64,000 nucleotides of DNA. Origin: a virus. The position numbers and the translations under genes were made by a program. Position 1 is the stretch's first letter, and every line of letters begins with the position of its first letter. Shown in pieces: positions 5,863 through 60,699 of this stretch. The notes beneath the pieces are model-generated. The model was not told where the DNA came from. It was given only the letters and a program-made list of their open reading frames with translations, and ran no database searches. The stretch spans positions 35,862-99,861 of IMG/VR virus record IMGVR_UViG_3300050821_016057; one strand, written 5' to 3'.

Positions 5863-5880
5863 CCCAAACCCGGGTTTGGG
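5863..5880. repeat. 18-bp palindrome CCCAAACCCGGGTTTGGG copy 1
   Basis: Exact match; 30 bp upstream of a -35 box. Confidence 0.95.
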
Positions 5881-5900
5881 GAAAAAAGAACGAGGGGGTG

Positions 5901-5945
5901 ATAAAAAGACTTGCAGCCCAAGCGGGAAGGGTCCATAACAAGGTT
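5901..5945 (+). promoter_or_regulatory. Sigma70-type early promoter 1
   Basis: ATAAAAAGAC-TTGCAG-N17-CATAAC-AAGGTT; near-identical copy at 48243. Confidence 0.8.
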
Positions 5946-6068
5946 CGTAGGGCGGCGCTGAAAAGAGGGGCGCCACTCCACCACCTGATGGCATGCAGGT
6001 TCAGGATGGGGTACCCGTGAGGGCCCGGACGGTGCTTGTGACGCCCCTCTCTTCGACACCCTCGAACC
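5942..6068 (+). ncRNA. Structured 5' leader RNA (long stem with branched top)
   Basis: GGTTCG/CGAACC, AGGG/CCCT, GAAAAGAGGGGCG/CGCCCCTCTCTTC, CACC/GGTG; internal hairpins ACCTG/CAGGT and CCC-GTGA-GGG. Confidence 0.6.
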
Positions 6069-6102
6069 AACACCCGCGCTGAGGCGCAGAAAGAGGAACC
6101 CC

Positions 6103-7260
6103 ATGCTTCACCACCACGGACCCGCAGGCACCTACGACGTCGCAGCATCCGAGGCCGCCACGCGCGCCCGCTCGCTCATGGAGCAGAAGATCGAGACCGG
6201 CAAGCAGTCGGCCATCCAGCTGTACGAGCGCGTGCACGCCGCGGTCCCGGTCGACGCGATCGTCCGCGGGCGCGGGCTCGCGTTCCAGTACGGGGTCGGC
6301 CCCGAGGACATGCCGGTCAGCGTCTCGGCGGGCGGCAGCCCGATGGGCATCCACCGGCACGCGCTCCAGCAGATGGCCGGCAAGGCCGGCATCCCGGGCC
6401 AGTACCTGGCCGAGTTGGTCGGCGCCCCCGAGGGGTGGAAGCGCGAGCTGGCGGCCCGGACGCTCACCGACCACTTCACCCGCACGCAGGTCGTGCAGCG
6501 CGAGGACCTGTCCGGGTCCCGCCACCTGGTGCGGGCGGTCAACGGGGAGGTGCGCGGCTTCCTGAGCGACCGGTACCGCCGGCTGGACTCGCGCCCGCTG
6601 CTCGAGGCGTTCGCCGAGGGCTGCCGGGAGCTGGGCGCGGTGCCGGTCGAGGGGACGACCACGGACGTGCGCGTGGCCCTCAAGGCGTACCTGCCGATGG
6701 TGTTCGAGCCCGTCCCCAACGAGGTGATGTGCCTGGGGGTCGAGTGGAGCAACAGCGACTTCGGGGCGGGCAAGCACGCGCTCCGCGCGTTCATCTACCG
6801 GCTCTGGTGCGCGAACGGGGCGGTCATGGAGGACGCGATGAGCCAGGTGCACCTGGGCGGCCGGCTGGCCGACACGATCGAGTTCAGCGACCGGACCTAC
6901 GCGCTCGACACGCGCGCCTCGGTCAGCGCGCTCCGGGACGTGGTGGCGGGCACGCTCGGGCCGAAGTCGGTCAACACCCTACTGGCCACCATCCGGGCGG
7001 CCGACGAGAAGAAGGTCGAGTGGCGCTCGGTGAGCACGCTCCTCGGCAAGAAGCTCCTGAAGGAGGAGCTGAAGGCGGCCCGGGACGCGTTCGACAGCGA
7101 GGACGTGATCAACCTGCCGGCCGGCAAGTCGATCTGGCGGGTCAGCAACGCGATCAGCTGGATCGCGGGCAAGACCGAGGACCAGGACCGCAAGTTGGAG
7201 CTGCAGAGGCTGGCGGGCGCGGTCATCCACGGCAAGAGCGAGGAGGCGGTGGCGGCCTGA
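6103..7260 (+). CDS. DUF932-like phage protein
   Basis: LSDRYRRLD; WSNSDFGAG...RLWCANG; GAGG RBS. Confidence 0.75.
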   Translation: MLHHHGPAGTYDVAASEAATRARSLMEQKIETGKQSAIQLYERVHAAVPVDAIVRGRGLAFQYGVGPEDMPVSVSAGGSPMGIHRHALQQMAGKAGIPGQYLAELVGAPEGWKRELAARTLTDHFTRTQVVQREDLSGSRHLVRAVNGEVRGFLSDRYRRLDSRPLLEAFAEGCRELGAVPVEGTTTDVRVALKAYLPMVFEPVPNEVMCLGVEWSNSDFGAGKHALRAFIYRLWCANGAVMEDAMSQVHLGGRLADTIEFSDRTYALDTRASVSALRDVVAGTLGPKSVNTLLATIRAADEKKVEWRSVSTLLGKKLLKEELKAARDAFDSEDVINLPAGKSIWRVSNAISWIAGKTEDQDRKLELQRLAGAVIHGKSEEAVAA

Positions 7261-7279
7261 GTCGAGGGGGGTGGGAGAC

Positions 7280-7367
7280 CGCCCCCGCACCGCCTGATCG
7301 GCATCGCGCTCGCAACCCCTAGGCAGGGGCGGAGGGGCGCGCCGGGGTTCGACTCCCCGGGGGGCGA
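7280..7367 (+). ncRNA. tRNA-like RNA without a canonical anticodon arm
   Basis: 7-bp acceptor stem CGCCCCC/GGGGGCG + A; T-arm CGGGG-TTCGACT-CCCCG; GCC/GGC D-like stem. Confidence 0.6.
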
Positions 7368-7420
7368 CGAAGTTGCAGTGCGGGCGCTGAGGCGCCCGAG
7401 GTGAAGGACAACCGAGGACG

Positions 7421-8077
7421 GTGACCAGGATGGCGAGAGAGATCGAAGGGCCGGCGTTCCGCTTGAGGGACGGTCGGAGCACGTACGGCGAGTTCGCCCG
7501 GGAGACCCGGGAGCGCTGGGTGGCGATGGCCCGGTGGTTGATGCGGCGGTGGCGGGTGCCGGGTTGGGTGGACGTCGAGGACGTCGTCCAGGAGCTGATG
7601 ATCGGGGCGTGGCGGGGGTGCTTCGAGTACCAGGAGGGCCGGGGGACGAGGTCGCTGGGCGGGCACGTCGAGTACGTGGCCACCGACAAGGCGAAGAAGC
7701 GGATGCACAAGTGGCGGGGCGCGCTCCTGCACGGCAACCCGGACGCCGAGGACGGGCATATGGACGTCCCGTTCTGCGTGGTCGAGGACGGGGACGGTTG
7801 GGTGGACACGCTGTCGAACGTGCCGCCCGGGCAGGAGGACGCGCTGATGCGCCGGCAGAGCGGGCGGGCGGTGCTCCGGCAGTGCCAGTCGATCGAGGAG
7901 CTGCTGGTCGTGCAGGCGCTGGCCGAAACCGAGAGCTTCATCGGGTCGGCCGCCCTGATCTACGGGGACGAGGACTCGCGGCAGCTGCTCGAGCTTAGGA
8001 GCGAGGAGCACGCCGCGCAGGTGGTGGTGAGGACCGCGTACGCGGTGGTGGACAGGATTCAACTCGAGGCAGCATGA
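7421..8077 (+). CDS. Phage sigma70-family factor
   Basis: Region-2-like DVEDVVQELMIGAWRGCFEYQEGRG..SL..HVEYVA; region 4 degenerate; start may be ATG 7430. Confidence 0.75.
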   Translation: MTRMAREIEGPAFRLRDGRSTYGEFARETRERWVAMARWLMRRWRVPGWVDVEDVVQELMIGAWRGCFEYQEGRGTRSLGGHVEYVATDKAKKRMHKWRGALLHGNPDAEDGHMDVPFCVVEDGDGWVDTLSNVPPGQEDALMRRQSGRAVLRQCQSIEELLVVQALAETESFIGSAALIYGDEDSRQLLELRSEEHAAQVVVRTAYAVVDRIQLEAA

Positions 8078-9246
8078 GGGAGACGACCATGGAGACGAGC
8101 AAGCAGAAGACGAACGCGACGACGGGGATCATCTTGGCGATGCTGGACCGGCCCCGGATGCTGAAGGCCGCCAACGCGGCGGGGCTGATGACCGAGGGCA
8201 AGTCGGACGAGCAGCTGAGCGTGGCCCTCTTCGCCCACTACCTGAAGGGGGTGGGGAACGACTCGGCCAAGCTGGTCGAGTGCGACATGTGCCTGGGGCG
8301 CTCGCCCGAGGCGCTGGAGGGGTGCCCGTACTGCCTGGAGGACCCGGCGGCGGGCGCGAAGGGGTCGCCGAAGGCGGCCGAGACTGGTAAGGGTCAACAC
8401 CCCAAGGAGAAGGCGCACATGAACAAGACGACGACGAAGGAAGAGGCCCCGCAGAAGTCGCTGATGCTGGCCGGCGGCACCGGGCTGGCGACCGTCACCC
8501 CGATCGGCAAGGACTTGTCGAAGCTGACCGAGAAGACGCTCGACCACGCGGTTAAAGAGGTGCAGGTCGCCAAGGCGGAGGCGAGCGGCTCGATGTGGAA
8601 GCTGGGCGGGAAGATCGCCGCCATCTACGACGGGCAGCTCTGGAAGCTCCGCAGCGAGGACGGCAAGCCGCGCTACAAGACGCCGGACGCGTTCTGCGTG
8701 GCCGAGCTGGGGATGTCGGTCACCCACGCGTGGTCGCTGATGGACCTGCACAAGAAGTTCACCGAGGCCGAGGTGGCCAAGTTCGGGACCAGCAAGCTGG
8801 GCCTGCTCCTGCAGGCGCCCGAGGCGGCCCGCCCGGCCATCCGGGAGTCGATCGAGAAGGGGGCGACCAAGCAGGCGGTGGCCGCCGAGGTCAAGCGCGC
8901 CAACCAGGGCAAGGAGACGGTCCAGCGCCGGGACGGCAAGGAGCAGAAGAGTTCCGCCCCGACCCGCGCCAAGAACCGCGCTGAGGGCAAGAAGGAGAAG
9001 CCGGCCCTGAGGGCGGGCCGCGCCACCATCACGATCGCCAACATGACGGGTAGCCAGACGATCCCGATGTGGAAGAAGGCGAGCATGGTCGGGGACGACA
9101 AGAAGGAGTGGGTGCGCGCCAAGCGGATCGCGGACGTGCCGACCTGCCGGATGGAGCTGGCCAACGACGTCGTGCAGGACTTCACGCTGGTCGAGCACAC
9201 GGACGGCACGCTCAAGCTGAAGATCGTCACCGCGCGCGCCGAGTAG
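8074..9246 (+). CDS. Putative DNA-binding protein (Zn ribbon + HTH-like domain)
   Basis: CDMC...CPYC; WKLG..I..I....LWK...YKT...FC..ELGMS helix-turn-helix-like segment; Lys-rich. Confidence 0.55.
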   Translation: MRETTMETSKQKTNATTGIILAMLDRPRMLKAANAAGLMTEGKSDEQLSVALFAHYLKGVGNDSAKLVECDMCLGRSPEALEGCPYCLEDPAAGAKGSPKAAETGKGQHPKEKAHMNKTTTKEEAPQKSLMLAGGTGLATVTPIGKDLSKLTEKTLDHAVKEVQVAKAEASGSMWKLGGKIAAIYDGQLWKLRSEDGKPRYKTPDAFCVAELGMSVTHAWSLMDLHKKFTEAEVAKFGTSKLGLLLQAPEAARPAIRESIEKGATKQAVAAEVKRANQGKETVQRRDGKEQKSSAPTRAKNRAEGKKEKPALRAGRATITIANMTGSQTIPMWKKASMVGDDKKEWVRAKRIADVPTCRMELANDVVQDFTLVEHTDGTLKLKIVTARAE

Positions 9247-9248
9247 GA

Positions 9249-9266
9249 CCCAAACCCGGGTTTGGG
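9249..9266. repeat. 18-bp palindrome copy 2
   Basis: Exact match right after the stop codon. Confidence 0.95.
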
Positions 9267-9272
9267 GGGCGG

Positions 9273-9282
9273 GCGGCATAAG
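9273..9282 (+). promoter_or_regulatory. GCGGCATAAG motif upstream of the DNA polymerase
   Basis: Exact motif. Confidence 0.7.
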
Positions 9283-9286
9283 AGAA

Positions 9287-9323
9287 GGGCTCCACCCATT
9301 GGGGGTGGGGCCTTTTCTCGTTT
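9287..9323 (+). terminator. Intrinsic terminator of the early operon
   Basis: GGGCTCCACCC-loop-GGGTGGGGCCT followed by TTTCTCGTTT. Confidence 0.7.
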
Positions 9324-9340
9324 CGTGCGATGGAGCCCGG

Positions 9341-12403: not shown

Positions 12404-12944
12404 GGAGACGTCGGGGGTGGTGGTGGACCGGAAGGTGGAGGCTAAGCAGCACCCGGTCGAGTTCCCGTCGGCCAACCGGGCCCGGGAGGTGCCGCTGGAG
12501 CCCCAGTTCGAGTGGGTGCTCGAGCAGGTGTTCGTCAAGGACATCCGGGGCGCGTACCAGCGGGTGATCGAGTTCGTGAACCGGAAGGGGGGGCGGACCA
12601 AGCTGGACGTGGACGAGGCCAACACACTGCTCAGGAAGGCGCACGACCTCCTGATGACGGCCAGGCGCGAGCGGTACCGTTGGGAGCTCGACAACAAGGT
12701 CGTGTTCGCGGCCTGCTACGAGCGGGCGGTGCTGGACCTGCAGCGCGAGAAGGCCTCGGGCGAGCGGTCCAAGCAGATCACGGACGCCGACACCGAGAAC
12801 CGGTTCGCGCTCATGTACCCGGACGAGTGGCGCCACCAGGAGCTGAAGAAGCGGGAGGTGAAGATCCTGGAGGAGTCGATGGCCAATCTCGTCCAGGTCA
12901 TGGAGCAGACGTGCAGGAACATGGGCTTGACGGTCAAGCCGTAG
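12348..12944 (+). CDS. Helical protein, possibly UvsY-like recombination mediator
   Basis: Coiled-coil character; lies between Pol and SSB/RecA; function is inference. Confidence 0.45.
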   Translation: MKKRSEVGKALEGAQKLVEETSGVVVDRKVEAKQHPVEFPSANRAREVPLEPQFEWVLEQVFVKDIRGAYQRVIEFVNRKGGRTKLDVDEANTLLRKAHDLLMTARRERYRWELDNKVVFAACYERAVLDLQREKASGERSKQITDADTENRFALMYPDEWRHQELKKREVKILEESMANLVQVMEQTCRNMGLTVKP

Positions 12945-12958
12945 GGCAAACGAAGGAA

Positions 12959-12976
12959 CCCAAACCCGGGTTTGGG
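12959..12976. repeat. 18-bp palindrome copy 3
   Basis: Exact match, intergenic. Confidence 0.95.
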
Positions 12977-12991
12977 AGAAAGACGACAGAC

Positions 12992-14419: not shown

Positions 14420-14462
14420 AGTGCTGTCCCGCGCACCACGGGCTCCACCATCGAAAGAAGTA

Positions 14463-16409: not shown

Positions 16410-16907
16410 GTGGCGAGGAAGAAGAAGGACTTGGGCCCGATAAAGATCCGGCCGTTCGGGGACTTGGTTATCGCAGCTGAAGTGCCGTTCCCAAACCCGG
16501 GTTTGGGGGCGAGAGTTCCCGCGTGGGGAGCGTTCGAGCTGGTGGGGTTTGACACCCCGCTCGCGCTGACGATCGGGAAGGACAGCGTGATGTGGGTCGA
16601 TTCCGAGTCGTGGCTGTCGACCCCCCCGAGTCTCGGTGGCGCGTACGTGAGGATCGACCCGCCCGCATGGGCGACCGACGAGCAGGTGGAGCGGGCCCGG
16701 TTCCTGGTCGCGCAGGCCGGGGCGTGCGCGGTGAGGGTGCTGCCCCGCCCCAGGGCGGCCCCGATGGTCCGGGAGGCCCGGGAGCCCGCCCGGGCCCGGG
16801 AGACCCTCAGGGAGGCCGTCCTGGCGGTCAGCGGGGGGGTGGCGTCGAGCGACCGGGCCGCGCTGGACCGGGTGGTCGAGGGAGTGCTGGGAAAGGTGGG
16901 TCTTTAA
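16410..16907 (+). CDS. Hypothetical protein, possibly the separated SbcD C-terminal domain
   Basis: Lies between sbcD and sbcC; GAYVRI motif. Confidence 0.55.
   Translation: MARKKKDLGPIKIRPFGDLVIAAEVPFPNPGLGARVPAWGAFELVGFDTPLALTIGKDSVMWVDSESWLSTPPSLGGAYVRIDPPAWATDEQVERARFLVAQAGACAVRVLPRPRAAPMVREAREPARARETLREAVLAVSGGVASSDRAALDRVVEGVLGKVGL
16490..16507. repeat. 18-bp palindrome copy 4 (intragenic)
   Basis: Exact match; encodes PNPGLG. Confidence 0.95.
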
Positions 16908-18855: not shown

Positions 18856-19079
18856 CCACCCACGACTGGTACGGGATCGCCGTCTACTGCGTGGTGTTCG
18901 TCGTGCACTTCTACTCGTGGGCGGACGGGGCCAAGAAGGGGTACCGGCTGGCGCTCAAGCACGTGGGCGACGAGCACGCGCGCGACCTGCGGGGCATGTT
19001 CCGGTGGGAGGTGCCCCGGACCCCCTGGGAGATCGTGGAGAAGTTGATGGCCGAAGACCTCGTGGACCGTGGGCGATGA
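18852..19079 (+). CDS. Small membrane protein
   Basis: N-terminal hydrophobic stretch; ATGA coupling. Confidence 0.6.
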   Translation: MTTHDWYGIAVYCVVFVVHFYSWADGAKKGYRLALKHVGDEHARDLRGMFRWEVPRTPWEIVEKLMAEDLVDRGR

Positions 19080-19686
19080 GTTCGACCCGGATTGCCCCGA
19101 GGACCGGGTGGACGGCGGCGCCTGGTACGGGTGGTGGGCGGTGAGGGGACCCAAACCCGGGTTTGGGGTCGGGCCGGCCGTGCTGGGCCTGGACCTGTCG
19201 CTGCGCGGGGCGGGGGCGGTGGTGCTGCCGGGCTGCTGGGACCCGTCCCGCCCCAACGCCGGGGTGGTGGCGCACCGGTTCACCGAGGAGGGTCGGCTGG
19301 AGGGGAGGGAGCGGCAGGCGGCGATCGTCCGGGGGGTGTGGCGGCTGGCCGTCCAGCAGGCGGTCAAGTGGGCGTTCGTGGAGGAGCACTCGTTCAGCAA
19401 GGGGCTGATGAAGCACGCGTACGCGCGGGCCGAGCTGGTGGGGGCGGTCAAGAACGACCTCTGGTCGCAGCTGGGGATCGAGGTCGTGCCCGTGGTGGCG
19501 AGCAGCGCGCGCAAGCTCCTGTTCGGCCCGCAGCGGCGGATGACTTCCCGTGAGTGGAAACAGTTCATCCAGGCCGGCTTCGGGGACATGGGGCTCGACC
19601 TGCCCGACGAGGACACCCGGGACGCGATGGTGGTGGCGAACGCGGGCCGGCACGTCCGCGGACTGGTCTGCCTGTCCGCGGGGTGA
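19069..19686 (+). CDS. RuvC-like Holliday junction resolvase
   Basis: VLGLDLS, FVEE, ARKLLFG, EDTRDA. Confidence 0.8.
   Translation: MGDEFDPDCPEDRVDGGAWYGWWAVRGPKPGFGVGPAVLGLDLSLRGAGAVVLPGCWDPSRPNAGVVAHRFTEEGRLEGRERQAAIVRGVWRLAVQQAVKWAFVEEHSFSKGLMKHAYARAELVGAVKNDLWSQLGIEVVPVVASSARKLLFGPQRRMTSREWKQFIQAGFGDMGLDLPDEDTRDAMVVANAGRHVRGLVCLSAG
19150..19167. repeat. 18-bp palindrome copy 5
   Basis: Exact match just before the RuvC core. Confidence 0.95.
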
Positions 19687-20329: not shown

Positions 20330-21763
20330 GTGAGGAAGACCAAGGCGGCGGTGCCCACCGGGCACGAGCGGGTGGAGAAGCCGTTCATCCGAAAGTTCAA
20401 CTCGGCGAACAGGAAGGCCCGCCCGGGCAAGCCGTCGCCCACCATGATCAGCAACGCGCCGGACACCGCCCCTCTCGTCCGAGAGGGGCCCATCGCGGGC
20501 GACGGCGCGTACGCGGGGCTGCTGTCGCGCGAGCTGCCCCGGGAGGCGCCCGCGGCCCGCGGGATGACGCTGGCCAGCTTCTTCTGCTGCGGGGGCGGGA
20601 TCGACCTGGGTTTCCGCTCGGCCGGCTTCCGGACCGCGTTCGCCAACGACATCCACCAGGCGGCGGCCGACACGTTCGCCGACAACCTGGGCCACCGGCC
20701 GCTCCTGCGGACAATCCGCGAGGTCGGCCCGGCCGACTACCCGGGGGGGCCGGTGGACGTGGTGACGGGCGGGTTCCCGTGCGTGACGTTCAGCATGGCG
20801 GGCCGGCGGGCCGGCGTGACCGACGACGAGAACGGCAAGCTGTACCTGGAGCTCTGCCGGGTCATCCGCGAGCTGAACCCCAGGTACTTCGTGGCCGAGA
20901 ACGTGAAGGGGATGCTGAGCGCGAACGGCGGGCAGGCGGTCAAGCTGGTGCTGGCCGCGTTCCTGCGACTCGGATACCGGACCCAATACGAGATGGTCAA
21001 CATGGCCGAGCACGGGGTGCCGCAGACGCGCGAGAGGGTGATCTTCGTCGGGGTGAGGGTCGACCAGTGGCGGGGCTCGTTCCTGTTCCCGCGGAGGACG
21101 CACCGGCTGCGGGACGACAGGCGCGCCAAGATGTGGCTGCCGGTGGCGAGGACGCTGGCGGAGGCGGTGGGCGACCTGGGCCCGCCCGGCGAGCGGCTAA
21201 GGGGGATGATGCACGCGGACGCGGCCGCCAAGGTGGGCAAAGTGGGGATCACCAACGGGTTCCAGAACAGCCGGCCTAGGAGCCCGGTGGACCCGTCTCA
21301 CTCGCAGACCAGCTCGGGGGCCAACGTGCTGATCGTGGACGCCAACCACGCGCGCAACGACGAGCCGGTCAGCGCCACCTACGCGATGAGCAAGCGGGTG
21401 GCCAGGCGTGGGCGACCGTCACCCACGCTCGTGAGCGAGGCCGCCAACGTGCAGCCCTTCATCAGGGACGGCCGCGACGTCGTCGCGGCGAGGAACCCCG
21501 ACTTCCACAACCCGCTGCGGGCGGCCAGCGGTCCGTCGCCGACCATGACCTCGGGCGGGCAGACCGAGGTGGTGGAGCGGTCGGGCGGGATGCGCAGGAT
21601 GACGGCCCGCGAGTGCGCGCGCGTGCAGAGTTTCCCGGACTGGTACGAGTTCGCGGGCAGCCAGGCCGACCAGTACAGGATCATCGGGAACGCCGTGCCC
21701 CCGCTCTACGCGAAGGCCCTGGCGCTGGCGCTCATCGAGTACGACGGAAGGGAAAAGGCGTGA
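20330..21763 (+). CDS. C5 cytosine DNA methyltransferase with several TRD-like repeats
   Basis: FCCGGG, GGFPC, ENVKG, PQTRERV, RECARVQSFPD, IGNAVPP. Confidence 0.93.
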   Translation: MRKTKAAVPTGHERVEKPFIRKFNSANRKARPGKPSPTMISNAPDTAPLVREGPIAGDGAYAGLLSRELPREAPAARGMTLASFFCCGGGIDLGFRSAGFRTAFANDIHQAAADTFADNLGHRPLLRTIREVGPADYPGGPVDVVTGGFPCVTFSMAGRRAGVTDDENGKLYLELCRVIRELNPRYFVAENVKGMLSANGGQAVKLVLAAFLRLGYRTQYEMVNMAEHGVPQTRERVIFVGVRVDQWRGSFLFPRRTHRLRDDRRAKMWLPVARTLAEAVGDLGPPGERLRGMMHADAAAKVGKVGITNGFQNSRPRSPVDPSHSQTSSGANVLIVDANHARNDEPVSATYAMSKRVARRGRPSPTLVSEAANVQPFIRDGRDVVAARNPDFHNPLRAASGPSPTMTSGGQTEVVERSGGMRRMTARECARVQSFPDWYEFAGSQADQYRIIGNAVPPLYAKALALALIEYDGREKA

Positions 21764-22551
21764 TGGCTACCAAGAAGGTGAGGCAGAAGGTGTCGGCGTC
21801 GAAGCCGGAGGGGCTCAAGGTGCCGGTCCCCCAGCAGGTCAAGCTGGCCGATCTGCAGTTCGCCCCCTACAACCCACGCAGCATCTCCCGGGAGGTGATG
21901 GGGGCGCTCAAGGCCAGCCTGCGGAAGCACGGGATGGTCCTGACGCTGGTGGTGCAGAAGCTGAGCGGGGCCCACGGGCCGATGGTGCTGATCGGCGGGC
22001 ACCAGCGGGTGCGGGCCATGCGGGAGCTCTGCGCGGCCGAGGGGTGGCCGGAGCCGGCCGAGGTGTCGGCGGTCGTGCTGGACGTGGGGGACGCGGAGGC
22101 CAAGCAGCTCAACGTGTCGCTCAACAACATCGAGGGGGAGTTCGACCCCTACAAGCTGGGCGAGATGTTCCGCGACATCCGCCCCGCCATGACCATGGAC
22201 GACGTGCTGGCCACCGGGTTCGCCCCGGTGGAGATCGACGAGATGATCAACCTGCTGGCGAGCCCGGACGACGCGGCGCGCCTGCTCGAGGAGAACATCG
22301 GCGACCTGGGCGGGTTCGGTTCCAGCATCACGCTGAGCATCGAGTTCGCGACCGTGGAGTCCAGGGACGAGGCCAAGTCGATTCTGAAGGCGGCCGCCCA
22401 GCACTCGGGCAAGAAGCCCGGGGACCTGATGCTCCGGGCGGTGAAGGCGTCGGACGTGCTCGGCAAGCTGGGCGGCCCGCGGCATAAGGGTGGGGATGGC
22501 AAGTCGAAGGCGAAGGGCGCCCCTAGGGCAGCAGCACCTCAGCGAGCGTAG
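21763..22551 (+). CDS. ParB/Srx N-terminal domain protein
   Basis: PYNPR, SLRKHG, IGGHQR, LNVSLNNIEGEFD. Confidence 0.85.
   Translation: MATKKVRQKVSASKPEGLKVPVPQQVKLADLQFAPYNPRSISREVMGALKASLRKHGMVLTLVVQKLSGAHGPMVLIGGHQRVRAMRELCAAEGWPEPAEVSAVVLDVGDAEAKQLNVSLNNIEGEFDPYKLGEMFRDIRPAMTMDDVLATGFAPVEIDEMINLLASPDDAARLLEENIGDLGGFGSSITLSIEFATVESRDEAKSILKAAAQHSGKKPGDLMLRAVKASDVLGKLGGPRHKGGDGKSKAKGAPRAAAPQRA
22479..22488 (+). promoter_or_regulatory. GCGGCATAAG motif, leaderless ATG 22496
   Basis: 7 nt to ATG. Confidence 0.7.
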
Positions 22552-24821: not shown

Positions 24822-25171
24822 GCGGCGAGGCGAAGAGGGTGCCGGTGGACTTCCGGTACGACGCCCTGAACCCGGCGTTCCTGAAGTGGATGGCGCGGAT
24901 CGGGTCCTACGCGGCCGACAAGTACGGCTCGTGGGAGCAGTACCGGGAGACCCGGCTGGTGGGCGAGAAGTCGCCCGTCAACCACATGTACGAGCACCTC
25001 CGGCAGTACCAGGTGGGCGAGCCGCACGACCACTTCGACGGGGACGTGCGCTGGCACCTGGTGGCCGTCGCGTACAACGCGATGATGGAGTTCTACTACT
25101 GCACCCGGTGGGGCCACCCCGAGCACCCGCTGGAGGTCCCAAACCCGGGTTTGGGAGACGGGGCGGCATAA
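24818..25171 (+). CDS. DUF5664-like dATP/dGTP diphosphohydrolase domain protein
   Basis: FRYDALNP, SYAADKYG, HL.QY..GE..D, HLVAVAYNAMM. Confidence 0.7.
   Translation: MSGEAKRVPVDFRYDALNPAFLKWMARIGSYAADKYGSWEQYRETRLVGEKSPVNHMYEHLRQYQVGEPHDHFDGDVRWHLVAVAYNAMMEFYYCTRWGHPEHPLEVPNPGLGDGAA
25138..25155. repeat. 18-bp palindrome copy 6
   Basis: Exact match at the gene 3' end. Confidence 0.95.
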
Positions 25172-27515: not shown

Positions 27516-27533
27516 CCCAAACCCGGGTTTGGG
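27516..27533. repeat. 18-bp palindrome copy 7 (extends to 24 bp, GGA...TCC)
   Basis: Exact match. Confidence 0.95.
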
Positions 27534-27542: not shown

Positions 27543-27552
27543 GCGGCATAAT
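27543..27552 (+). promoter_or_regulatory. GCGGCATAAT motif variant upstream of UvrD
   Basis: 1 mismatch to consensus. Confidence 0.65.
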
Positions 27553-32091: not shown

Positions 32092-32109
32092 CCCAAACCC
32101 GGGTTTGGG
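32092..32109. repeat. 18-bp palindrome copy 8
   Basis: Exact match after the stop codon. Confidence 0.95.
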
Positions 32110-36065: not shown

Positions 36066-36807
36066 CCCACTGCTCGCACCGGCAGAACCCGATCGCGTGC
36101 CTGGAGTGCTGGAAGGCGTGCCCGGTCGGGCCCGACCCCAGGCCGGAGGCCCAGACGGGCACGCAGGTCGCGCACGCGCCGTGCGGCTGCCGGCTGAGCG
36201 TGAGCTACTCGACCGGCGAGGTGATCAGCTGGCACCCGTGCCAGGCCGGGCACGACCCGCCCGAGCGGGACGGCAGGAGCCGGGCGCCCCGGGAGCGGGT
36301 CACCGCCCAGCGGTTCTGGGCCTCGGTGCGCGACCTGCCCAGCCTGGTGCTCCACTCGCTGGCCGAGCGGGCCGAGTGCGACGACGAGCGGTGCCGGGAG
36401 GCGGCCCGGCGGGTCGACCGGGCCCGGGCCCGGCGGGGACCCAAACCCGGGTTTGGGAGGGAGGGGTGAGCGGGGCGGCCGAAGGAGCCCGCGTGCTGGC
36501 GGGGGAGGTCCGTGGCCTGCTGGAGCAGCTATGTTCCCAACCCCACTGGGCGAGGGTGACGATTCTCAGGTTGCTGGAGACCGTCGAGTCGATGGCCGCG
36601 AAGGACGAAGGAGTGATGATGGAGATTGAGGACGCGAACGGTAAGCCGAGGTCTCGGGAGGATATCGAGGCGGCGCTCAAATACGTGGTTGCCGAGATGA
36701 TCGTCAACCCTATGAGGATGGGTGCCAGTGACACTGGGCCGGCCGTCCTCCACTACATGGTGATCCGGGAGCTGCTCTTGGCCGAGTTGGGTAGAAGGTC
36801 CGAGTGA
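36062..36807 (+). other. Two hypothetical CDS (36062-36469, 36466-36807)
   Basis: GTGA coupling. Confidence 0.55.
36440..36457. repeat. 18-bp palindrome copy 9
   Basis: Exact match at the gene 3' end. Confidence 0.95.
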
Positions 36808-39452: not shown

Positions 39453-40166
39453 ATGGACGACGAGGCGCTGCGGAGGATGAAGAACAGGCACGTGGCCAAG
39501 GTCGACATCGCGGTCGTGCTGGGCCGGCTGGACGCGGGGGACCGGCTGCCCGTGATGCGCGAGCTGCTGGTGGAGATGGAGAAGGGGGTTGTTCGGATCG
39601 AGGCGCCGCGGGGGCCCGCCACCAGGAAGGGGGGCGGGATCGGGGAGGTGCTGCCGCTGATCGTGGGGGCGGGTCGGCCGATCGGTGCCGAGGAGATCCG
39701 GAGGACGTCCGGCCTGCACCTCGACACGGTGCGATCCTACCTGAGCAAGCTGACCAGCCAGGGCCTGATCGCCCGCGTCAGTCACGGGCTGTACCAGTCG
39801 CTCCCAAACCCGGGTTTGGGGGGCCGACCGTCGGGGCAGGACCCCGCCGAGGCCCCGCCGCCCGCCGACGTTGGCCCAGGACGCGCCCCGGGAGCCGCCC
39901 CCGCCCAACCCCCAACCCGGGAGTGGGGGAACGTCCTGGGGGCGGCCCGGCTGGTTAGCGGGTCGGCGGTGGATGAGGCGTTGCCCGACCTCGGCAACAT
40001 CGAGCTCACCAAGCTCCTCAACGACGCGGCGCTCGTGCGCGACTTCCGGGATGTGCCGGTAGGCGAGGTGCCTGGCGGGTGGAAGGCGCCCGAGCCGGTC
40101 GTCTACGAGCCGGGCAAGCCGCTCCCCAAGGAAGCCAAGGACCCGCGGCCAGGGGGGAAGTGGTGA
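39453..40166 (+). CDS. Winged-helix DNA-binding protein
   Basis: PIGAEEIRRTSGLHLDTVRSYLSKLTSQGLIARVSHGLY. Confidence 0.75.
   Translation: MDDEALRRMKNRHVAKVDIAVVLGRLDAGDRLPVMRELLVEMEKGVVRIEAPRGPATRKGGGIGEVLPLIVGAGRPIGAEEIRRTSGLHLDTVRSYLSKLTSQGLIARVSHGLYQSLPNPGLGGRPSGQDPAEAPPPADVGPGRAPGAAPAQPPTREWGNVLGAARLVSGSAVDEALPDLGNIELTKLLNDAALVRDFRDVPVGEVPGGWKAPEPVVYEPGKPLPKEAKDPRPGGKW
39803..39820. repeat. 18-bp palindrome copy 10 (intragenic, just after the wHTH)
   Basis: Exact match. Confidence 0.95.
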
Positions 40167-41050: not shown

Positions 41051-41068
41051 CCCAAACCCGGGTTTGGG
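41051..41068. repeat. 18-bp palindrome copy 11
   Basis: Exact match. Confidence 0.95.
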
Positions 41069-41071: not shown

Positions 41072-41081
41072 GCGGTATAAG
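41072..41081 (+). promoter_or_regulatory. GCGGTATAAG motif variant, leaderless ATG 41089
   Basis: 7 nt to ATG. Confidence 0.7.
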
Positions 41082-44818: not shown

Positions 44819-45395
44819 TCGACATCACTTACCGCGGGGCGGCGTTCGAGCAGGCCTACCGGGACCTGGAGGATAGGATCAAGTTCAACCACCACAACGC
44901 CGCCATGCACGCGCGGAGTGGCGACCTGGAGGGGCAGCTCGAGTCGGCGAGGAGCATGGCGCGCGCGGAGGCGTACGAGCTGGCGCTGTGGAACCTGAAG
45001 CGAATCGCGAAGGAGCACGGGTTCGGCTAGCCTGCCAGGCATGGCCCTGGACCCGTGCAGCACCGCCCAGCTCGTCGCGTGGCTGACCGAGCGGGCCGAC
45101 GACCGGCAGTTCGTCCTGGAGAGCGCGGACACGTTCTGGAGGCTGGCGCCCGGCAGGTTCCCGGCCGCGCTGTCGCTGGCCCCGGCGGCGGGCGAGCGGG
45201 CGCTGATGGTCGCGTACGCGATGCTCTACCGCCGGCAGACGTTCCGGGGCTGCATGGTGGTGGGGCGCGCCTACCTGACGATCGCGCAGGGGCTGCTCGC
45301 CCAGGACGCGCGGTTCCAGGTCCAGCTGTACGACCTGCGCAACCCCGTGACCCCGTACACGCCGGGCGGCCGCGGGGTGGTGGGCGGCCCGTGAG

Positions 45396-45413
45396 CCCAA
45401 ACCCGGGTTTGGG
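45396..45413. repeat. 18-bp palindrome copy 12
   Basis: Exact match. Confidence 0.95.
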
Positions 45414-45416: not shown

Positions 45417-45426
45417 GCGGCATAAG
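45417..45426 (+). promoter_or_regulatory. GCGGCATAAG motif, leaderless ATG 45433
   Basis: 6 nt to ATG. Confidence 0.7.
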
Positions 45427-47426: not shown

Positions 47427-47911
47427 GCAACGGGCTGTCGGAGTGGAGCGGGAGGAGGGGCCCGGACGTCAGGCAGGCGATGATCCGGTTGGAGTCGCTC
47501 CCGCAGGCCCGGCACGGGGTGAGGCCGCCTCCCCCGCTGGTCGTGGACCAGAAGGACCGGTACCACCAGGCGTGCGCGCGGGCCGGCAACGGCGGGCACC
47601 TGTCGCCCGAGATCAAGCGGGCGCCGATCGAGGTCGTGCAGCTGGACGGGGTGCACACCATCCAGGGCTCGGTCAACCCGACCCGTGTGCTCCAGTACCT
47701 GCGCGACCCCGAGCTGACCCCGCGCGACGCGGTGGGGCCGCACGGCGGGCCGGTCGGCTACCCGATCGTCGTCCGGGCCGGCGGCATCCGGTGGCTGCAC
47801 GACGGGCACCACCGGGTGGTGGCCAACCTGCTCCGGGGCGAGCGGTCCATCCGGGCCCGGTACCTGGACCTGGACGCCCGCACCCCAAACCCGGGTTTGG
47901 GAGTCCGATGA
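47423..47911 (+). CDS. ParB/Srx-like domain protein
   Basis: PIVVR...LHDGHHRVVA. Confidence 0.65.
   Translation: MSNGLSEWSGRRGPDVRQAMIRLESLPQARHGVRPPPPLVVDQKDRYHQACARAGNGGHLSPEIKRAPIEVVQLDGVHTIQGSVNPTRVLQYLRDPELTPRDAVGPHGGPVGYPIVVRAGGIRWLHDGHHRVVANLLRGERSIRARYLDLDARTPNPGLGVR
47884..47901. repeat. 18-bp palindrome copy 13
   Basis: Exact match at the gene 3' end. Confidence 0.95.
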
Positions 47912-48215: not shown

Positions 48216-48233
48216 CCCAAACCCGGGTTTGGG
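48216..48233. repeat. 18-bp palindrome copy 14
   Basis: Exact match; 19 bp upstream of a -35 box. Confidence 0.95.
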
Positions 48234-48242: not shown

Positions 48243-48287
48243 ATAAAAAGACTTGCACAACCGACTCGAGTAGGGGATAACAAGGTT
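48243..48287 (+). promoter_or_regulatory. Sigma70-type early promoter 2
   Basis: ATAAAAAGAC-TTGCAC-N17-GATAAC-AAGGTT. Confidence 0.8.
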
Positions 48288-48318
48288 GCGGCGCTGAGGC
48301 GCCCGGGAGGATGTCCAG

Positions 48319-52485: not shown

Positions 52486-52520
52486 TGGACGGTCGCCCGG
52501 GGGGCCGTTAGCCTCCCAGC

Positions 52521-54422: not shown

Positions 54423-54462
54423 CTTACTCGCCGGGCGGTCGGGTTGTGTGTACGGTTCGGGG

Positions 54463-55146
54463 ATGTCCGCACTCATCCTGATCAACACGACGACCGTCAT
54501 GGTCAGCGGCGCCTCGAGCAAGCGGTTCCCTGGCGAGACCGTGACCGACCCGGCCCTCCAGTCGACGATCGCCGCCTCGGGCGGGCAGCTGGTCGCGCCG
54601 AGCGCGGGGCTGACGGCGGCGGCCGCCCTGGCGACCAAGCTGCGCACGCAGGGGGCGGACGAGACCCAGCTGCTCTCGGTGATGCTGGCCGCCTACACGG
54701 CCTACGTGGCCACGCTGGCGGCGGCCGAGACGGCGGCCGCGGTCGCGTACGTGGACGGGGCGCCCGCGTTCGGGTCGACCAACGTCCAGGGGGCGCTGGA
54801 CGCGGTCAAGGCCGACCTGACCGCCATCGACAGCTCGGTCACGACGATCGAGGGGGACATCACGGCCATCGACGCCAACATCGCCGCCCTGCCCACCTTC
54901 CAGAGCGGGGGCGGGACGCTGACCTCGGGGGCCAGCGGGAACATCGCCGCCACCATCACCGCGTCCTCCCGGATCGTCGTCACCCGCACGGCCGTCAACG
55001 CGTCGACCGCGCTGGGCGAGCTGGCGGTGACGAACAAGAGCGTGGGGGCGCCCGGCCACTTCGTGGTGGACGCGCTCACCCCGGCCACGCCCGGCACCCC
55101 GCTGGCGTCGGACGTGTCGTCGTTCGACTGGGTGGTCATGGACTGA
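54463..55146 (+). CDS. Putative virion fibre/decoration protein
   Basis: STNVQGALD fibre motif, short coiled coil, ITASSRIVVT. Confidence 0.65.
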   Translation: MSALILINTTTVMVSGASSKRFPGETVTDPALQSTIAASGGQLVAPSAGLTAAAALATKLRTQGADETQLLSVMLAAYTAYVATLAAAETAAAVAYVDGAPAFGSTNVQGALDAVKADLTAIDSSVTTIEGDITAIDANIAALPTFQSGGGTLTSGASGNIAATITASSRIVVTRTAVNASTALGELAVTNKSVGAPGHFVVDALTPATPGTPLASDVSSFDWVVMD

Positions 55147-55149
55147 GGA

Positions 55150-55167
55150 CCCAAACCCGGGTTTGGG
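55150..55167. repeat. 18-bp palindrome copy 15
   Basis: Exact match. Confidence 0.95.
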
Positions 55168-55208
55168 AGGATTGTGGACAGGGGCCGGGCCGCGCGTAGG
55201 CTGAGCCC

Positions 55209-56238: not shown

Positions 56239-56241
56239 GCC

Positions 56242-56595: not shown

Positions 56596-56604
56596 GGTCA
56601 CCCC

Positions 56605-57054: not shown

Positions 57055-57057
57055 GTT

Positions 57058-58041: not shown

Positions 58042-58044
58042 TCG

Positions 58045-59787
58045 ATGCCCCTCGGGCTAGGACCCATCTCCAACTCCCCGATCGCCGGTCTCTCTGGAGG
58101 AGACCACGGCGGCGCGTTCTACGCAGTCATCGTGGGTGGCGCCACGCTCGTGGAGCTGATGGCGGTCCAGCGCGCGCTCGCCTCGGCGGTGGCCGGGCAA
58201 GCGACGGTCGGCGTGTCGATGAGGGTGAAGCGCGCCCTCGCGACCTCGGTGGCGGGGCAAGCCGCCGTTGCCGACACGATGAGCGTCAAGCGGGCGCTCG
58301 CTGACGCGGTCGTCGGGCAGGCCGCGGTGTCGGCGGCGTTCACGGCCAAGCGCCCGCTGGCCGCGGCGGTGGTCGGGCAGGCGACGGTGGCCGACACGAT
58401 GCGGGTCGCGCGGCCGCTGTCGGCGGCGGTGCACGGGGCGGCGGCGGTCACCGACGCGATTTTGGTCAAGCGTGGGATGGTCGACGCCGTCCTGGGGTCC
58501 TCGGTGGTGGTGGACGCGTTCAACTTGAAGCGCGCGCTGGCCGAAGCGGCGGTCGGCCAGGCGGGTGTGGTGGTCAACTTCACGGCCAAGCGGCCGCTGG
58601 CCGCGGCGGTCGCCGGGGGCGCGGTCGTCTCCGACGCGATGGCGGTCAAGCGGGTGATGTCGGTGCCGACCATCGCCGGGGCGGCCACCTTGTCCCCGGT
58701 GCCCATGCAGGTGAGGCGGGCGCTCCTCGAAGCGGTGTCGGGCGCGGCCACCCTGTCCCCGATGCCCGTGCGGGTCAGGCGCGCTCTCGCGCTGGCGGCG
58801 GTCGGGGACGCCGCGGTGTCGGCCGCCTGGACGGCCGACCGACTGCTGTCGGCGGTGGTGCTGGGTCGGGCGGCGGTCGCGGACCAGATGGCGGTGCGCC
58901 GGTCGGCGTCCTCCTCGGTCTCGGGGCAGGCCGCGGTGTCGGCGGCGCTCGGCCGGAAGGTCGCGCTCGTCCTGACGGTCGACTCGTTCGCCGTCTTCCT
59001 GGCCGCGATGGACGTGTCGGGCGGTGGGGGCGGGACGGTCGTGTTCGAGATGGACGCGTCGGGCGCGGCCGCGCTCGACCTGGTCGGGGAGGTCCGGCGC
59101 TCGATGGTCGCCCACCAGCAGGGCGCCGCGACGGCGACGATGGGCTGGGGGATGCGGCGGGCGCTGCGGGCGGCGCTGATCGGGGACGCGGTGGTGGGCG
59201 CGCAGCTGGGGGCCGGGCGGCCCCTGTCCGCCTCGGTGGCCGGCCACTCCACGCTGGTCGGGCTGCTGTCGAGGCGCCGGCCGGTCGCGCTCGTCACCGG
59301 GGGCTCGTCCTCGCTCGAGTTCGAGCTGGGGCGGTCCCGGCGGGTGGCCGCGGGGGTGTCGGGGGAGGCGGCCGTCCGGGCCGTCCTGGAGCTGTCCAGG
59401 GGGCTCGGCGCCGGCCTGGTGGGCGAGTCCTCGGTGGGGGCGGCGGTCGCCGTCGCCAAGGGGCTGCGGGCCGGGCTGGTGGGCGGGTCGACCCTGGAGG
59501 CGCTGCTCACCCGGTCGACGCCGTTCCGGGTCGCGATCCTGGCGGGCGGGTCGCTGGAGGCGTTGCTCACGTTCGCGATCCTCGGGGCCGCCGGGTCGGC
59601 GGTGGAGAGCCAGGCCGCGGCCGGTGCCGCGGTGAGCCCCGGCGGCCCCCAGGGCGCGTCCCTGGCCGCCGCCCAGGCCACCGGTGGGTCGTCGCTCGCG
59701 GGCGCGCCCGGGGGCAACGTCGTTGTGGTGGTGGGGCTGGTCGGCGGTATGCTGGTCGTGCCGGTGCCCACCGGGAGGACCCAATGA
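58045..59787 (+). CDS. Ala/Val-rich repeat protein (~20-aa repeats), probable fibre shaft
   Basis: Recurring KR(A/P)L..AV.G.A.V units; LGLGPISNSPIA N-terminus. Confidence 0.7.
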   Translation: MPLGLGPISNSPIAGLSGGDHGGAFYAVIVGGATLVELMAVQRALASAVAGQATVGVSMRVKRALATSVAGQAAVADTMSVKRALADAVVGQAAVSAAFTAKRPLAAAVVGQATVADTMRVARPLSAAVHGAAAVTDAILVKRGMVDAVLGSSVVVDAFNLKRALAEAAVGQAGVVVNFTAKRPLAAAVAGGAVVSDAMAVKRVMSVPTIAGAATLSPVPMQVRRALLEAVSGAATLSPMPVRVRRALALAAVGDAAVSAAWTADRLLSAVVLGRAAVADQMAVRRSASSSVSGQAAVSAALGRKVALVLTVDSFAVFLAAMDVSGGGGGTVVFEMDASGAAALDLVGEVRRSMVAHQQGAATATMGWGMRRALRAALIGDAVVGAQLGAGRPLSASVAGHSTLVGLLSRRRPVALVTGGSSSLEFELGRSRRVAAGVSGEAAVRAVLELSRGLGAGLVGESSVGAAVAVAKGLRAGLVGGSTLEALLTRSTPFRVAILAGGSLEALLTFAILGAAGSAVESQAAAGAAVSPGGPQGASLAAAQATGGSSLAGAPGGNVVVVVGLVGGMLVVPVPTGRTQ

Positions 59788-60173
59788 CCCAGAGCGCGTG
59801 CCAGCCGACCGGCAAGTCGATCTTCAGGATGACGCGGGGCGACACCCGGACGTTCACGCTGACGGTGGTGCTGGCCGGGCAGCGGGTGAACCTGACGGGC
59901 TGCAAGCTCGCCTGGGTGGCCAACAGCTACCACCCGGACGACAACTCGCGGATCACCCACTCGACCGACGACGGCGGGGTGGTGATCTCTTCCGGGCAGA
60001 GCCCCGCGTCCCCGACGACCGGGCAGGCCACGCTGGCGCTCCACCCGCCCGACACCAACCAGTTCGCCAACGAGTGGATCCGGTTCAAGACCAACTGGGT
60101 GCTGACCGACCCGTCGGGCAACGTGACGACGATCGACCGCAACGAAGAGATCCACATGGCGCCGAACGTCTAG
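59784..60173 (+). CDS. BppU-like baseplate/adaptor domain protein
   Basis: MTRGDTRTFTLTV...VNLTG; similar to the N-terminus of 50590. Confidence 0.65.
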   Translation: MTQSACQPTGKSIFRMTRGDTRTFTLTVVLAGQRVNLTGCKLAWVANSYHPDDNSRITHSTDDGGVVISSGQSPASPTTGQATLALHPPDTNQFANEWIRFKTNWVLTDPSGNVTTIDRNEEIHMAPNV

Positions 60174-60193
60174 CTGGTCGTTCGGGCGACTCC

Positions 60194-60203
60194 GCGGCAT
60201 AAG
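60194..60203 (+). promoter_or_regulatory. GCGGCATAAG motif
   Basis: Exact motif; GGAGG RBS and ATG 60224 follow. Confidence 0.7.
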
Positions 60204-60223
60204 GGCCGCCGGAGGAAACGGCC

Positions 60224-60679
60224 ATGCCTCACCTGATGATTCTCTACCTCGTCGGCTTCGTGCGGGCGTGGTGGCCCGGGATCCACGGCGCCCAGGAGCG
60301 CGACATGTGGTCGGTCGCGGCCGAGGTGGCCGCGCTCCCCACCACGGCGGGCAAGAAGCTCCGGCTGATGAACATCGCCGCCATGGAGAGCGGGTTCCGC
60401 CGGGACGCCAGGGGCAAGCTGGGGGAGTGCGGGGCCTGGCAGGTCATGCCCCCCTACCGGAGCTGCGGGGCCGACGAGGCGCTGCGCCGGATGGACGGGC
60501 AGGGGATGGTCGCGTACGTGGGGTGCAGGCGCGCCGAGGACGTGGTGGAGGTCCGGGGGGCGCGGGTCACGTGCGCCCAGATGGTCGCCAACCGGGTGGA
60601 CCGGGCCGACACCTACCGGATGGCGTTCGACCCGCCGGACGAGCCGGCCCCCGACCCCGGCCTGCTGGCCGGCCGGTGA
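60224..60679 (+). CDS. Lytic transglycosylase (SLT-like)
   Basis: IAAMESGF...A.G..GE.G.WQVM; hydrophobic N-terminus. Confidence 0.7.
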   Translation: MPHLMILYLVGFVRAWWPGIHGAQERDMWSVAAEVAALPTTAGKKLRLMNIAAMESGFRRDARGKLGECGAWQVMPPYRSCGADEALRRMDGQGMVAYVGCRRAEDVVEVRGARVTCAQMVANRVDRADTYRMAFDPPDEPAPDPGLLAGR

Positions 60680-60681
60680 GA

Positions 60682-60699
60682 CCCAAACCCGGGTTTGGG
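60682..60699. repeat. 18-bp palindrome copy 16
   Basis: Exact match after the stop codon. Confidence 0.95.

Follow-up and report, generated by a model that had tools for sequence, protein, structure and literature searches.

Genome-wide arrays of phage-specific palindromes in an uncultured phage clade and a candidate dimeric reader encoded beside a phage sigma factor

Genome-wide arrays of a single palindrome are already known in phages. In the closest published case, the Cluster O mycobacteriophages (Corndog) carry 17-bp dyad repeats in 34 copies with invariant arms, which lie mostly at or near gene boundaries, in some cases in coding sequence, and are absent from the host (PMC4351075). Binding of a dimeric protein has been suggested, the role of the repeats is unexplained, and the authors doubted that it is linked to promoters (PMC4351075). 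Here, we analyzed a stretch of 64,000 nucleotides (the window) that comprises bases 35,862–99,861, i.e., the right-hand 64 kb, of the 99,861-bp IMG/VR virus record IMGVR_UViG_3300050821_016057. The record is rated complete, originates from an uncultured soil phage, has a G+C content of 70%, and carries nearly all genes on the plus strand. The 18-bp palindrome CCCAAACCCGGGTTTGGG occurs in the window in 16 exact copies. With moderate confidence, we read the 18-mers as duplex-DNA sites, one per ~4 kb, for a homodimeric phage protein, most likely the product of the gene at window positions 8074–9246, which would be made early together with a phage sigma factor. The original prediction, made from the sequence of the window, had presented the array as a new system. 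As a kind, this was overstated in view of the published Cluster O array. New are the clade-wide concerted turnover of such arrays and a widespread candidate reader that lacks a CTPase and is linked to a phage sigma factor.

Like the Cluster O repeats, the 18-mer has invariant inverted-repeat arms and occurs in tens of copies genome-wide; it is absent from the prokaryote genomes searched save for four contigs with a single copy each. In contrast to the 7-3-7 repeats of Cluster O, whose variable A/T spacer (TGTTCGGNNNCCGAACA) is embedded in a sequence common to all five members, the palindrome has no spacer and an invariant center, and its sequence differs in each relative of the phage. Shared proteins were not detected, as a tblastn search with the candidate binder against 50,697 phage records returned no homologue.

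By analogy, the functionally nearest understood system is KorB with its OB operators on the IncP-1 plasmid RK2. About a dozen dispersed palindromic operators are used there by a dimer with a ParB-type helix-turn-helix (HTH), which represses near and distant promoters (PMC11790492; PDB 1r71, 8qa8). The N-terminal CTPase is needed for clamping and sliding, and KorA is needed to lock KorB (PMC11790492). The phage shares with this system the dispersed palindromic sites on one replicon (26 over 99.9 kb, evenly spaced). The helical domain of the candidate aligns to the KorB DNA-binding domain with moderate Z scores of 5.6–6.3, with Raf1 interleaved among the matches. The phage differs in three respects: in place of ParB_N, its candidate carries a SAP-like domain plus a zinc ribbon, no equivalents of KorA and IncC were identified, and the element is a lytic-looking phage and not a plasmid.

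The sites parS and NBS of ParB and Noc are palindromes of 14–16 bp with the centers CACGTG and CCCGGG, i.e., with the same central C|G, and specificity within this protein family switches through a few residues. ParB–parS and Noc–NBS (PDB 6s6h, 6y93, 1vz0) are the best structural neighbors of the candidate domain, a similarity that is structural only. In contrast to them, the candidate has no CTPase, no ParA was found, and the 26 sites are dispersed instead of clustered near the origin. Many near-identical repressor sites across a phage genome are also represented by the stoperators of Cluster A (L5) and the conserved inverted repeats of phiC31. Stoperators, to which the 18-mers had been likened, are asymmetric, oriented, and found in temperate phages with an immunity repressor, whereas the 18-mers are perfect palindromes. 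Neither an immunity array nor a ParABS partition role, in line with the parS-like sites suggested initially, is supported. These models lack their defining partners because neither a ParA-type Walker ATPase (PF01656) nor a tyrosine integrase was found in the genome (serine integrases were not searched); in addition, two complete array-bearing relatives lack ParB_N (see below).

In T4-type phages, PeSL cassettes join terminator and promoter in a composite unit that is several tens of bases long, and they cluster in hyperplastic regions (PMC2839356, PMC4122927). The 18-mer resembles them in being a phage-specific repeat found at gene boundaries in combination with promoters, and the phage itself is a myovirus whose replication and recombination genes are T4-like. 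It differs from them as an isolated, sharply bounded palindrome that has no U-tract, stands at variable distance from promoters, and is evenly spread.

The array in the window and in the complete record

All 16 predicted start positions were recovered by pattern search, compared with 0.07 copies expected from shuffled sequences. The complete record contains 26 exact copies and no variant with one or two mismatches, and sub-words of the 18-mer down to AACCCGGGTT are confined to these 26 copies. The sole near-copy in the window, with three mismatches, is located at 39910. The 18-mer was found in no other IMG/VR contig, and of 185,579 prokaryote genomes (one per species) only three contained it, on four contigs with one copy each. 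Three sites (5863, 12959, and 19150) are spanned without differences by Logan contigs; these were assembled from two soil-metagenome runs that belong to two studies, one of the runs possibly being the source sample. Based on the exact counts, the absence elsewhere, and the independent spanning contigs, we conclude that the array is real, phage-specific, and far above chance expectation. The contigs crossing three sites rule out an assembly or adapter artefact. A host repetitive extragenic palindrome, an insertion-sequence end, or a repeat resembling miniature inverted-repeat transposable elements is ruled out by the four single-copy contigs among the species genomes, a set outside which the true host may lie.

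The individual copies (no strand assigned) are situated as follows:

Copy 1, 5863–5880: intergenic, 74 nt past the stop at 5789; the A-tract/TTGCAG of the sigma70-like promoter P1 begins at 5904; spanned by an independent contig
Copy 2, 9249–9266: 2 nt past the stop of the candidate binder gene; GCGGCATAA at 9273; PolB start at 9299
Copy 3, 12959–12976: 14 nt past the stop at 12944; the next gene has its ATG 15 nt downstream; an independent contig spans the site
Copy 4, 16490–16507: ambiguous; within the open reading frame (ORF) 16410–16907 only with the longest start
Copy 5, 19150–19167: probably located 12 nt ahead of a GVG-type start (GTG, followed by VLGLDLS...); within ORF 19069–19686 only with the longest start; spanned by an independent contig
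Copy 6, 25138–25155: in the C-terminal tail of a coding sequence (...EVPNPGLGDGAA*, stop at 25171); GCGGCATAA at 25163
Copy 7, 27516–27533: 3 nt past a stop; GCGGCATAA at 27543, then a UvrD-like helicase gene
Copy 8, 32092–32109: 2 nt past the stop of an AAA-ATPase gene (32089)
Copy 9, 36440–36457: in the C-terminal tail of a coding sequence (...GPKPGFGREG*, stop at 36469); large terminase gene start at 36804
Copy 10, 39803–39820: internal to ORF 39453–40166, in a Pro/Gly linker after weak winged-helix matches
Degenerate copy, 39910–39927: three mismatches, the only degenerate copy; same ORF as copy 10
Copy 11, 41051–41068: 1 nt past a stop; GCGGTATAA at 41072, followed by a leaderless ATG
Copy 12, 45396–45413: 1 nt past the stop at 45394; GCGGCATAA at 45417
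Copy 13, 47884–47901: in the C-terminal tail of a coding sequence (...RTPNPGLGVR*, stop at 47911)
Copy 14, 48216–48233: 6 nt past a stop; 9 nt upstream of the A-tract/TTGCAC of the sigma70-like promoter P2 (48246)
Copy 15, 55150–55167: 3 nt past the stop at 55146; TAGGCT -10-like motif at 55197
Copy 16, 60682–60699: 2 nt past the stop at 60679; next gene start at 60733

The prediction that most copies lie just after stop codons applies to about 10 of the 16, which begin 1–14 nt past the stop of a frame with a third-position G+C content (GC3) of ≥0.9. Six copies had been placed inside coding sequences. Three of them indeed occupy the last 10–12 codons of a gene (25138, 36440, and 47884) and a fourth a linker (39803), while 16490 and 19150 are probably located upstream of the true start. 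Coding copies are therefore found in C-terminal tails or linkers, and the peptide readings PNPGLG and PKPGFG were correct. ORF 39453–40166, which shows weak GntR/AbiEi winged-helix matches, is the only ORF with an internal copy; the degenerate copy is located 107 nt downstream of copy 10.

The sites are spaced more evenly than expected. The coefficient of variation (CV) of the inter-site distances was 0.52, compared with 0.95 for uniform random placement (p = 0.0004) and 0.84 when positions were drawn from the 54 gene boundaries that can accommodate a site (p = 0.0007). This even spacing suggests that each site serves a neighborhood of a few kb.

Palindromes of the related phages

Among the 50,697 deposited phage records, no close relative was retrieved by megablast of 20 kb or by tblastn of the family-B polymerase (PolB). 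The same polymerase used as a query against IMG/VR yielded 43 loci, from which nine full relatives were taken (88–100 kb, several with terminal repeats, PolB 40–50% identical). Every full-length relative has its own perfect palindrome of 14–26 bp in 7–30 copies:

G001: GGAACCCGGGTTC(C), 20 copies
G002: TGGAACTCGAGTTCCA, 24 copies
G003: CCGCAACACGTGTTGCGG, 29–30 copies
G004: CCGCACGGCGCCGTGCGG, 26 copies
G005: CCGACATCGATGTCGG, 19 copies
G006: ACGGATGATCGATCATCCGT, 17 copies
G007: TGAACATCGATGTTCA, 7 copies
G008: TCGAAAAGCGCTTTTCGA, 13 copies
G010: TTTAGACAGATCGATCTGTCTAAA, 8 copies

With at least eight further loci or metagenome contigs added to the ten full genomes, the private palindromes range from 14 to 28 bp, one being a quasi-palindrome with an asymmetric center. 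In the binder-positive locus L099 (IMGVR_UViG_3300015610_000633; 49% G+C), four copies of ACGTCTA-ACCGGG-TAGACGT occur in both orientations, with arms that form a perfect inverted repeat and a center that is asymmetric. All motifs have a C|G step at the dyad, compared with 39.6% of the other palindromes of ≥10 bp in the same genomes. The spacing CV was ~0.5 in all ten genomes and significantly under random in nine of them. Several orthologous gene junctions bear a site in four to eight genomes despite the differing motif. Judged from these sequences, the array is ancestral to the clade, and its spelling was replaced at all sites together in each lineage. Such a concerted evolution of ~20 sites demands a co-evolving, sequence-specific reader.

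Two of the mechanisms suggested initially did not survive this comparison. Pairing of GGG arms or formation of inter-site G-quadruplexes is at odds with the relatives' palindromes, which lack G-runs. A methylation-sensitive switch found no support, as the C5 methylase of the window was matched in only one of the nine relatives, at 28% identity.

Do the sites act at the level of RNA? In that case, an mRNA hairpin would be read by a sequence-specific factor and would serve as a processing site, a 5' or 3' stabilizer, or a factor-dependent terminator or attenuator. The arrangement of the genomes is compatible with this idea: almost all genes are on one strand in every genome, so that every site is transcribed in one sense, and many sites begin 1–6 nt past stop codons. 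In G003, 14 of 29 sites abut a Shine-Dalgarno sequence, and four, located 5–8 nt after a GCGGCAT(T/A)A -10 motif, would form the 5' end of the transcript. A polar flank variant in G001 points in the same direction. The predicted hairpins, however, range from -4 to -19 kcal/mol and are weak in several genomes (-8.1 in this genome; -4.2 and -5.8 in the GC-rich G001 and G002), and a T-run within 16 nt was detected at only 3 of 190 sites and at none of the 26 in this genome. Intrinsic (Rho-independent) terminators are thereby ruled out. The conserved block is sharply bounded. Beyond it, complementary flanks occur at the expected frequency, save two positions (flank pairs 4–5) in one relative, and an extended hairpin held by compensatory flanks was otherwise not seen. 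Thus, the sequence and not the pairing is constrained. Not only does the stem lack a compensatory extension, but the would-be loop (the central 4 nt) also varies no more than the stem does. Furthermore, the G001 variants yield A·C mismatches on the mRNA strand and not G·U pairs, and a canonical terminator follows one G001 palindrome within ~10 nt, indicating that the palindrome itself is not the terminator there. Finally, at genome positions 22198 and 32877, sites precede divergent promoters on both strands. Altogether, we regard an RNA-level element as quite unlikely.

Three local features of the relatives concern these flanks and repeats. Among the 20 sites of G001 (loci L012–L016), the base beside GAACCCGGGTTC on the transcription-upstream side is G (10) or A (9), and its downstream mirror is always C. 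G004 (loci L069–L073) contains two copies of a ~60-bp repeat (oriented positions 24978 and 50878), in which the palindrome is lengthened to a 30-bp stem between an A-tract and a T-tract; nowhere else does a site resemble a bidirectional intrinsic terminator. In G008 (loci L089–L093), the strand-specific repeat CTCGCCGCACTC occurs in 25 copies, and its core CGCCGCACTC in 31 copies with none on the opposite strand, which is suggestive of a tandem or periodic coding repeat.

The sites could also be points of recombination or module shuffling of the PeSL kind, or entry sites for SbcCD or a recombinase, with no dedicated binder. Short identical repeats at gene boundaries can mediate insertions and deletions, as PeSLs do (PMC2839356, PMC4122927), and the Cluster O repeats flank such events (PMC4351075). 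The phage encodes UvsX-like and SbcC-like proteins, and many of the relatives' sites fall among non-conserved genes. Recombination requires identity of the repeats; it does not call for palindromy, a conserved C|G at the dyad, sharply defined edges, or regular intervals, and the site density in this genome is similar in the conserved structural module and in the variable regions. Moreover, 18-bp palindromes are short for cruciform formation or SbcCD action. We therefore consider a mainly recombinational function highly improbable.

A candidate binder encoded beside a phage sigma factor

The gene pair on which the proposed protein–site system centers is the following:

7421–8077, plus strand: phage sigma factor (Sigma70_r2); its stop overlaps the start of the binder gene
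8074–9246, plus strand: candidate binder, 390 amino acids; SAP-like helices and a CxxC...CPxC zinc ribbon, a disordered linker of ~55 amino acids, a helical and likely HTH domain (residues ~150–280), and a C-terminal beta domain

Both genes are located downstream of P1, and a palindrome stands on each side of the gene block. The order sigma–binder–PolB is kept in ~20 relatives. About 35 genes are common to all ten genomes, and those with recognizable function encode portal, major head, and baseplate proteins, helicases, DnaB, a DnaG-type primase, PolB, UvsX-like and SbcC-like proteins, and the large terminase. The binder is conserved in nine of nine genomes. According to the structural models described below, it alone among the clade-wide proteins combines traits expected for sequence-specific DNA binding, namely a ParB/KorB-like HTH domain and a predicted symmetric dimer. 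This finding, together with the relatives' own arrays, supports the core of the original prediction, in which the sites would be bound by a dimeric phage protein, selection would act on DNA, and the 8074–9246 product was among the candidates named.

The gene and the arrays co-occur at the level of the clade. Among the PolB-related loci, 21 of 23 from the close clade encode the binder. A perfect palindrome of ≥14 bp recurs in 14 of these 21, and in at least four others the repeated palindromes are shorter or imperfect. In the 19 distant loci that lack the binder, not a single repeated palindrome was found.

Searches of Pfam and PHROGs with ~40 proteins assigned no family to the binder, nor to several other conserved small proteins. 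From 18 members of the binder family, only zinc-ribbon matches, one SAP match, and weak matches to DUF3102 were obtained; on DUF3102 we found no functional literature. None of the 18 matched ParB_N (the CTPase domain); the N-terminus is modeled as SAP-like helices plus zinc ribbon. A profile search of 1.84 billion representatives retrieved 2,089 relatives, including 804 at E ≤ 1e-30 over the full length. Judging from this search, the binder represents a large unnamed protein family.

AlphaFold models of the binder were calculated with 8 sequences (predicted local distance difference test, pLDDT, 69) and with 140 sequences (pLDDT 82, domains >95) and revealed the same domain layout. The helical domain was compared with ~48,000 PDB representatives, and the best matches were the following (Z scores for the 8-sequence / 140-sequence model):

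6s6h, ParB DNA-binding domain on parS: Z 8.8 / 7.1
1vz0, Spo0J: Z 8.0 / 6.2
1r71, KorB DNA-binding domain on operator: Z 6.3 / 5.6; root-mean-square deviation 2.7–3.1 over 92–106 of 114 residues
8qa8, KorB: Z 5.6 / 5.8
SopB, P1 ParB, and StbA: Z ~4

In Foldseek searches, ParB chains ranked first or close to first, their E-values being weak, and in a protein atlas residues 169–286 were nearest to a DUF3102/plasmid-partition cluster. The helical domain is thus likely a ParB/KorB-type HTH domain. Its conservation pattern, i.e., an invariant E211, then L-G-M-S/T, three variable residues, A-Y, one variable residue, and L-M-D, fits a helix-turn-helix. Two copies of residues 150–390 were predicted to form a symmetric homodimer with a score of 0.76, compared with 0.00 for the best control. 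Of the proteins solved as same-chain pairs, 20 of 30 attained this mark, compared with 1 of 23 proteins whose structure is a single chain. At least 85% of the contacts agreed between runs, with a partner pLDDT of at least 74. The prediction supports dimerization of the binder.

Another protein might, of course, read the duplex sites: a small, poorly conserved HTH protein, a host factor, or the ParB_N protein encoded at 21613–22551, which would act as a CTP clamp at parS-like sites. ParB_N proteins are encoded in 8 of the 10 genomes, the even spacing fits a loading-site model, and specific covariation between the sites and the putative recognition helix of the 8074–9246 product was not found (see below). 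On the other hand, two relatives rated 100% complete, G002 with 24 sites and G005 with 19, have no ParB_N match at E ≤ 0.01, and the genome has no ParA by the PF01656 search. This speaks against the ParB-like proteins at 21763 and 47423, which had been among the candidates named at the outset. The winged-helix protein at 39453 and the small HTH proteins, also named then, have no homologues in the relatives. A host factor, in turn, cannot explain why the motif differs in each phage unless the hosts differ equally. We consider a different binder unlikely. The ParB_N ORF of the window (312 amino acids) is overlapped by the upstream gene of the C5 cytosine methylase (477 amino acids; 20330–22551 for both).

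Promoters and the possible role of the sites

Three near-identical sigma70-like promoters were identified, each with a ATAAAAAGAC A-tract, TTGCA(C/G), a 17-nt spacer, and (C/G)ATAAC or CATAGG:

Window 5904–5960: sigma70-like promoter P1
Window 48246–48300: sigma70-like promoter P2
Genome 32868, minus strand: third sigma70-like promoter

A palindrome is located 5–22 nt upstream of all three, the minus-strand promoter included; the association of copies 5863 and 48216 with such promoters had been predicted correctly. Two of the three share a GGCGC-GAGGCGCC hairpin and GGGAGGA before the ATG. These are probably early promoters for the host RNA polymerase.

A second motif, GCGG(C/T)ATAAGG, resembles a -10-only promoter. 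It occurs in 18 plus-strand and 2 minus-strand copies in the genome, in many cases with a leaderless ATG 7 nt downstream, and its probable reader is the phage sigma factor (7421–8077). In agreement with the original prediction, five palindromes of the window (9249, 25138, 27516, 41051, and 45396) are positioned 3–9 nt upstream of GCGG(C/T)ATAA. The related GCGGCAT is strand-biased also in G002, G003, G005, G006, and G007. The palindrome itself was ruled out as a -35 element for the phage sigma factor, as the gap between it and the -10 motif can be anything from 7 to 15 nt. The TAGGCT(CC) motif, likewise -10-like, has 10 plus-strand copies, mainly in the structural module (genome 1810–35268, and window 46934 and 55197), sometimes 7 nt before a leaderless ATG. 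It possibly defines a separate late promoter class.

These promoters admit an enhancer-like function, in which the palindromes would recruit the phage transcription machinery. A dimer anchored at the palindrome would use its flexible linker and its SAP/zinc-ribbon module to deliver or activate sigma–RNA polymerase at the -10-only promoters (GCGGCATAAGG, TAGGCT), irrespective of direction and over varying distances, and would be co-translated with the phage sigma factor. It would be a functional analogue of the gp45–gp33–gp55 "mobile enhancer" of T4, but with a ParB-type DNA-binding domain. Such a mechanism would explain one site per ~4 kb, the sites upstream of promoters on both strands, and the invariant sigma–binder pair. 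We nevertheless rate this alternative as rather improbable.

We favor steric control by the bound homodimer. The system of sites and protein would be ancestral to a large clade of uncultured phages, and the partners would have drifted together, resulting in a private palindrome for each phage. The binder would be made early from P1, jointly with the phage sigma factor, and its homodimer would sit at gene boundaries. There, it would most likely modulate transcription genome-wide by promoter-proximal repression, as a roadblock, or by insulation between co-directional units, in a manner resembling KorB at the OB operators of RK2 without the CTPase clamp (PMC11790492). The sites of the relatives precede -10 motifs, overlap with them, or follow them closely, an arrangement that fits steric control by a bound protein better than a terminator or a 5' stabilizer alone. 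The arrays with their clade-wide turnover and even spacing, and the conservation and likely fold class of the protein, emerge directly from the analysis. We infer both the binding of the protein to the sites and its effect, and several observations weigh against this interpretation.

The first group of these concerns the protein. The Z scores of 5.6–8.8 are under the safe level of the tool for helical domains, and Raf1 chaperones score alongside among the matches. Profiles of the binder searched against PDB chains reached neither ParB nor KorB and matched the zinc ribbon alone. The co-occurrence of binder and array is a single clade-level event and confounded with phylogeny and GC content. In Mantel and partial Mantel tests on 18 protein–site pairs, based on a centre-anchored ungapped comparison of low power, the palindrome distance correlated with the distance of the rest of the binder domain (r = 0.28, p = 0.0065) and not with that of the 12-residue putative recognition helix (r = 0.00), i.e., specific covariation was not detected at this power. 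Two suggestive pairings, QHAxR with ACATCGATGT in two genomes and TPxNAY with CGAAAA(G/C)C, may reflect kinship only.

The second group concerns the sites. Every base of the 18-mer is invariant, including the spacerless center, for which dimer binding does not account. The flank variant of G001 is polar, with 9 of 20 sites on one side and none on the other, a polarity not predicted for a symmetric dimer site. The association of palindromes with GCGGCAT promoters was significant against random genome positions, but not within intergenic regions of ≥40 nt (odds ratio 2.4, p = 0.17). A transcriptional role of the sites is therefore not established. Their placement at gene boundaries is weak evidence for such a role, because an invariant 18-mer hardly fits into proteins and the compact genome leaves only the gaps between a stop and the next promoter or ribosome-binding site; the boundary could merely be where the 18-mer fits.

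The candidate reader is nonetheless concrete: a protein with a likely ParB/KorB-like domain and no CTPase, encoded in a conserved operon with a sigma factor and belonging to a family of more than 2,000 representative clusters. The more than 15 site–protein pairs constitute natural specificity variants. If the proposed mechanism is true, they would represent a widespread phage system of private, orthogonal protein–DNA pairs, usable as synthetic-biology parts, and would show a lytic phage organizing its transcription or chromosome at a scale of ~4 kb.

As a separate feature of the window, the coding strand displays a strong and sustained G>C skew of about +0.1 to +0.19 over most of positions 1–64000, which drops toward the right end.

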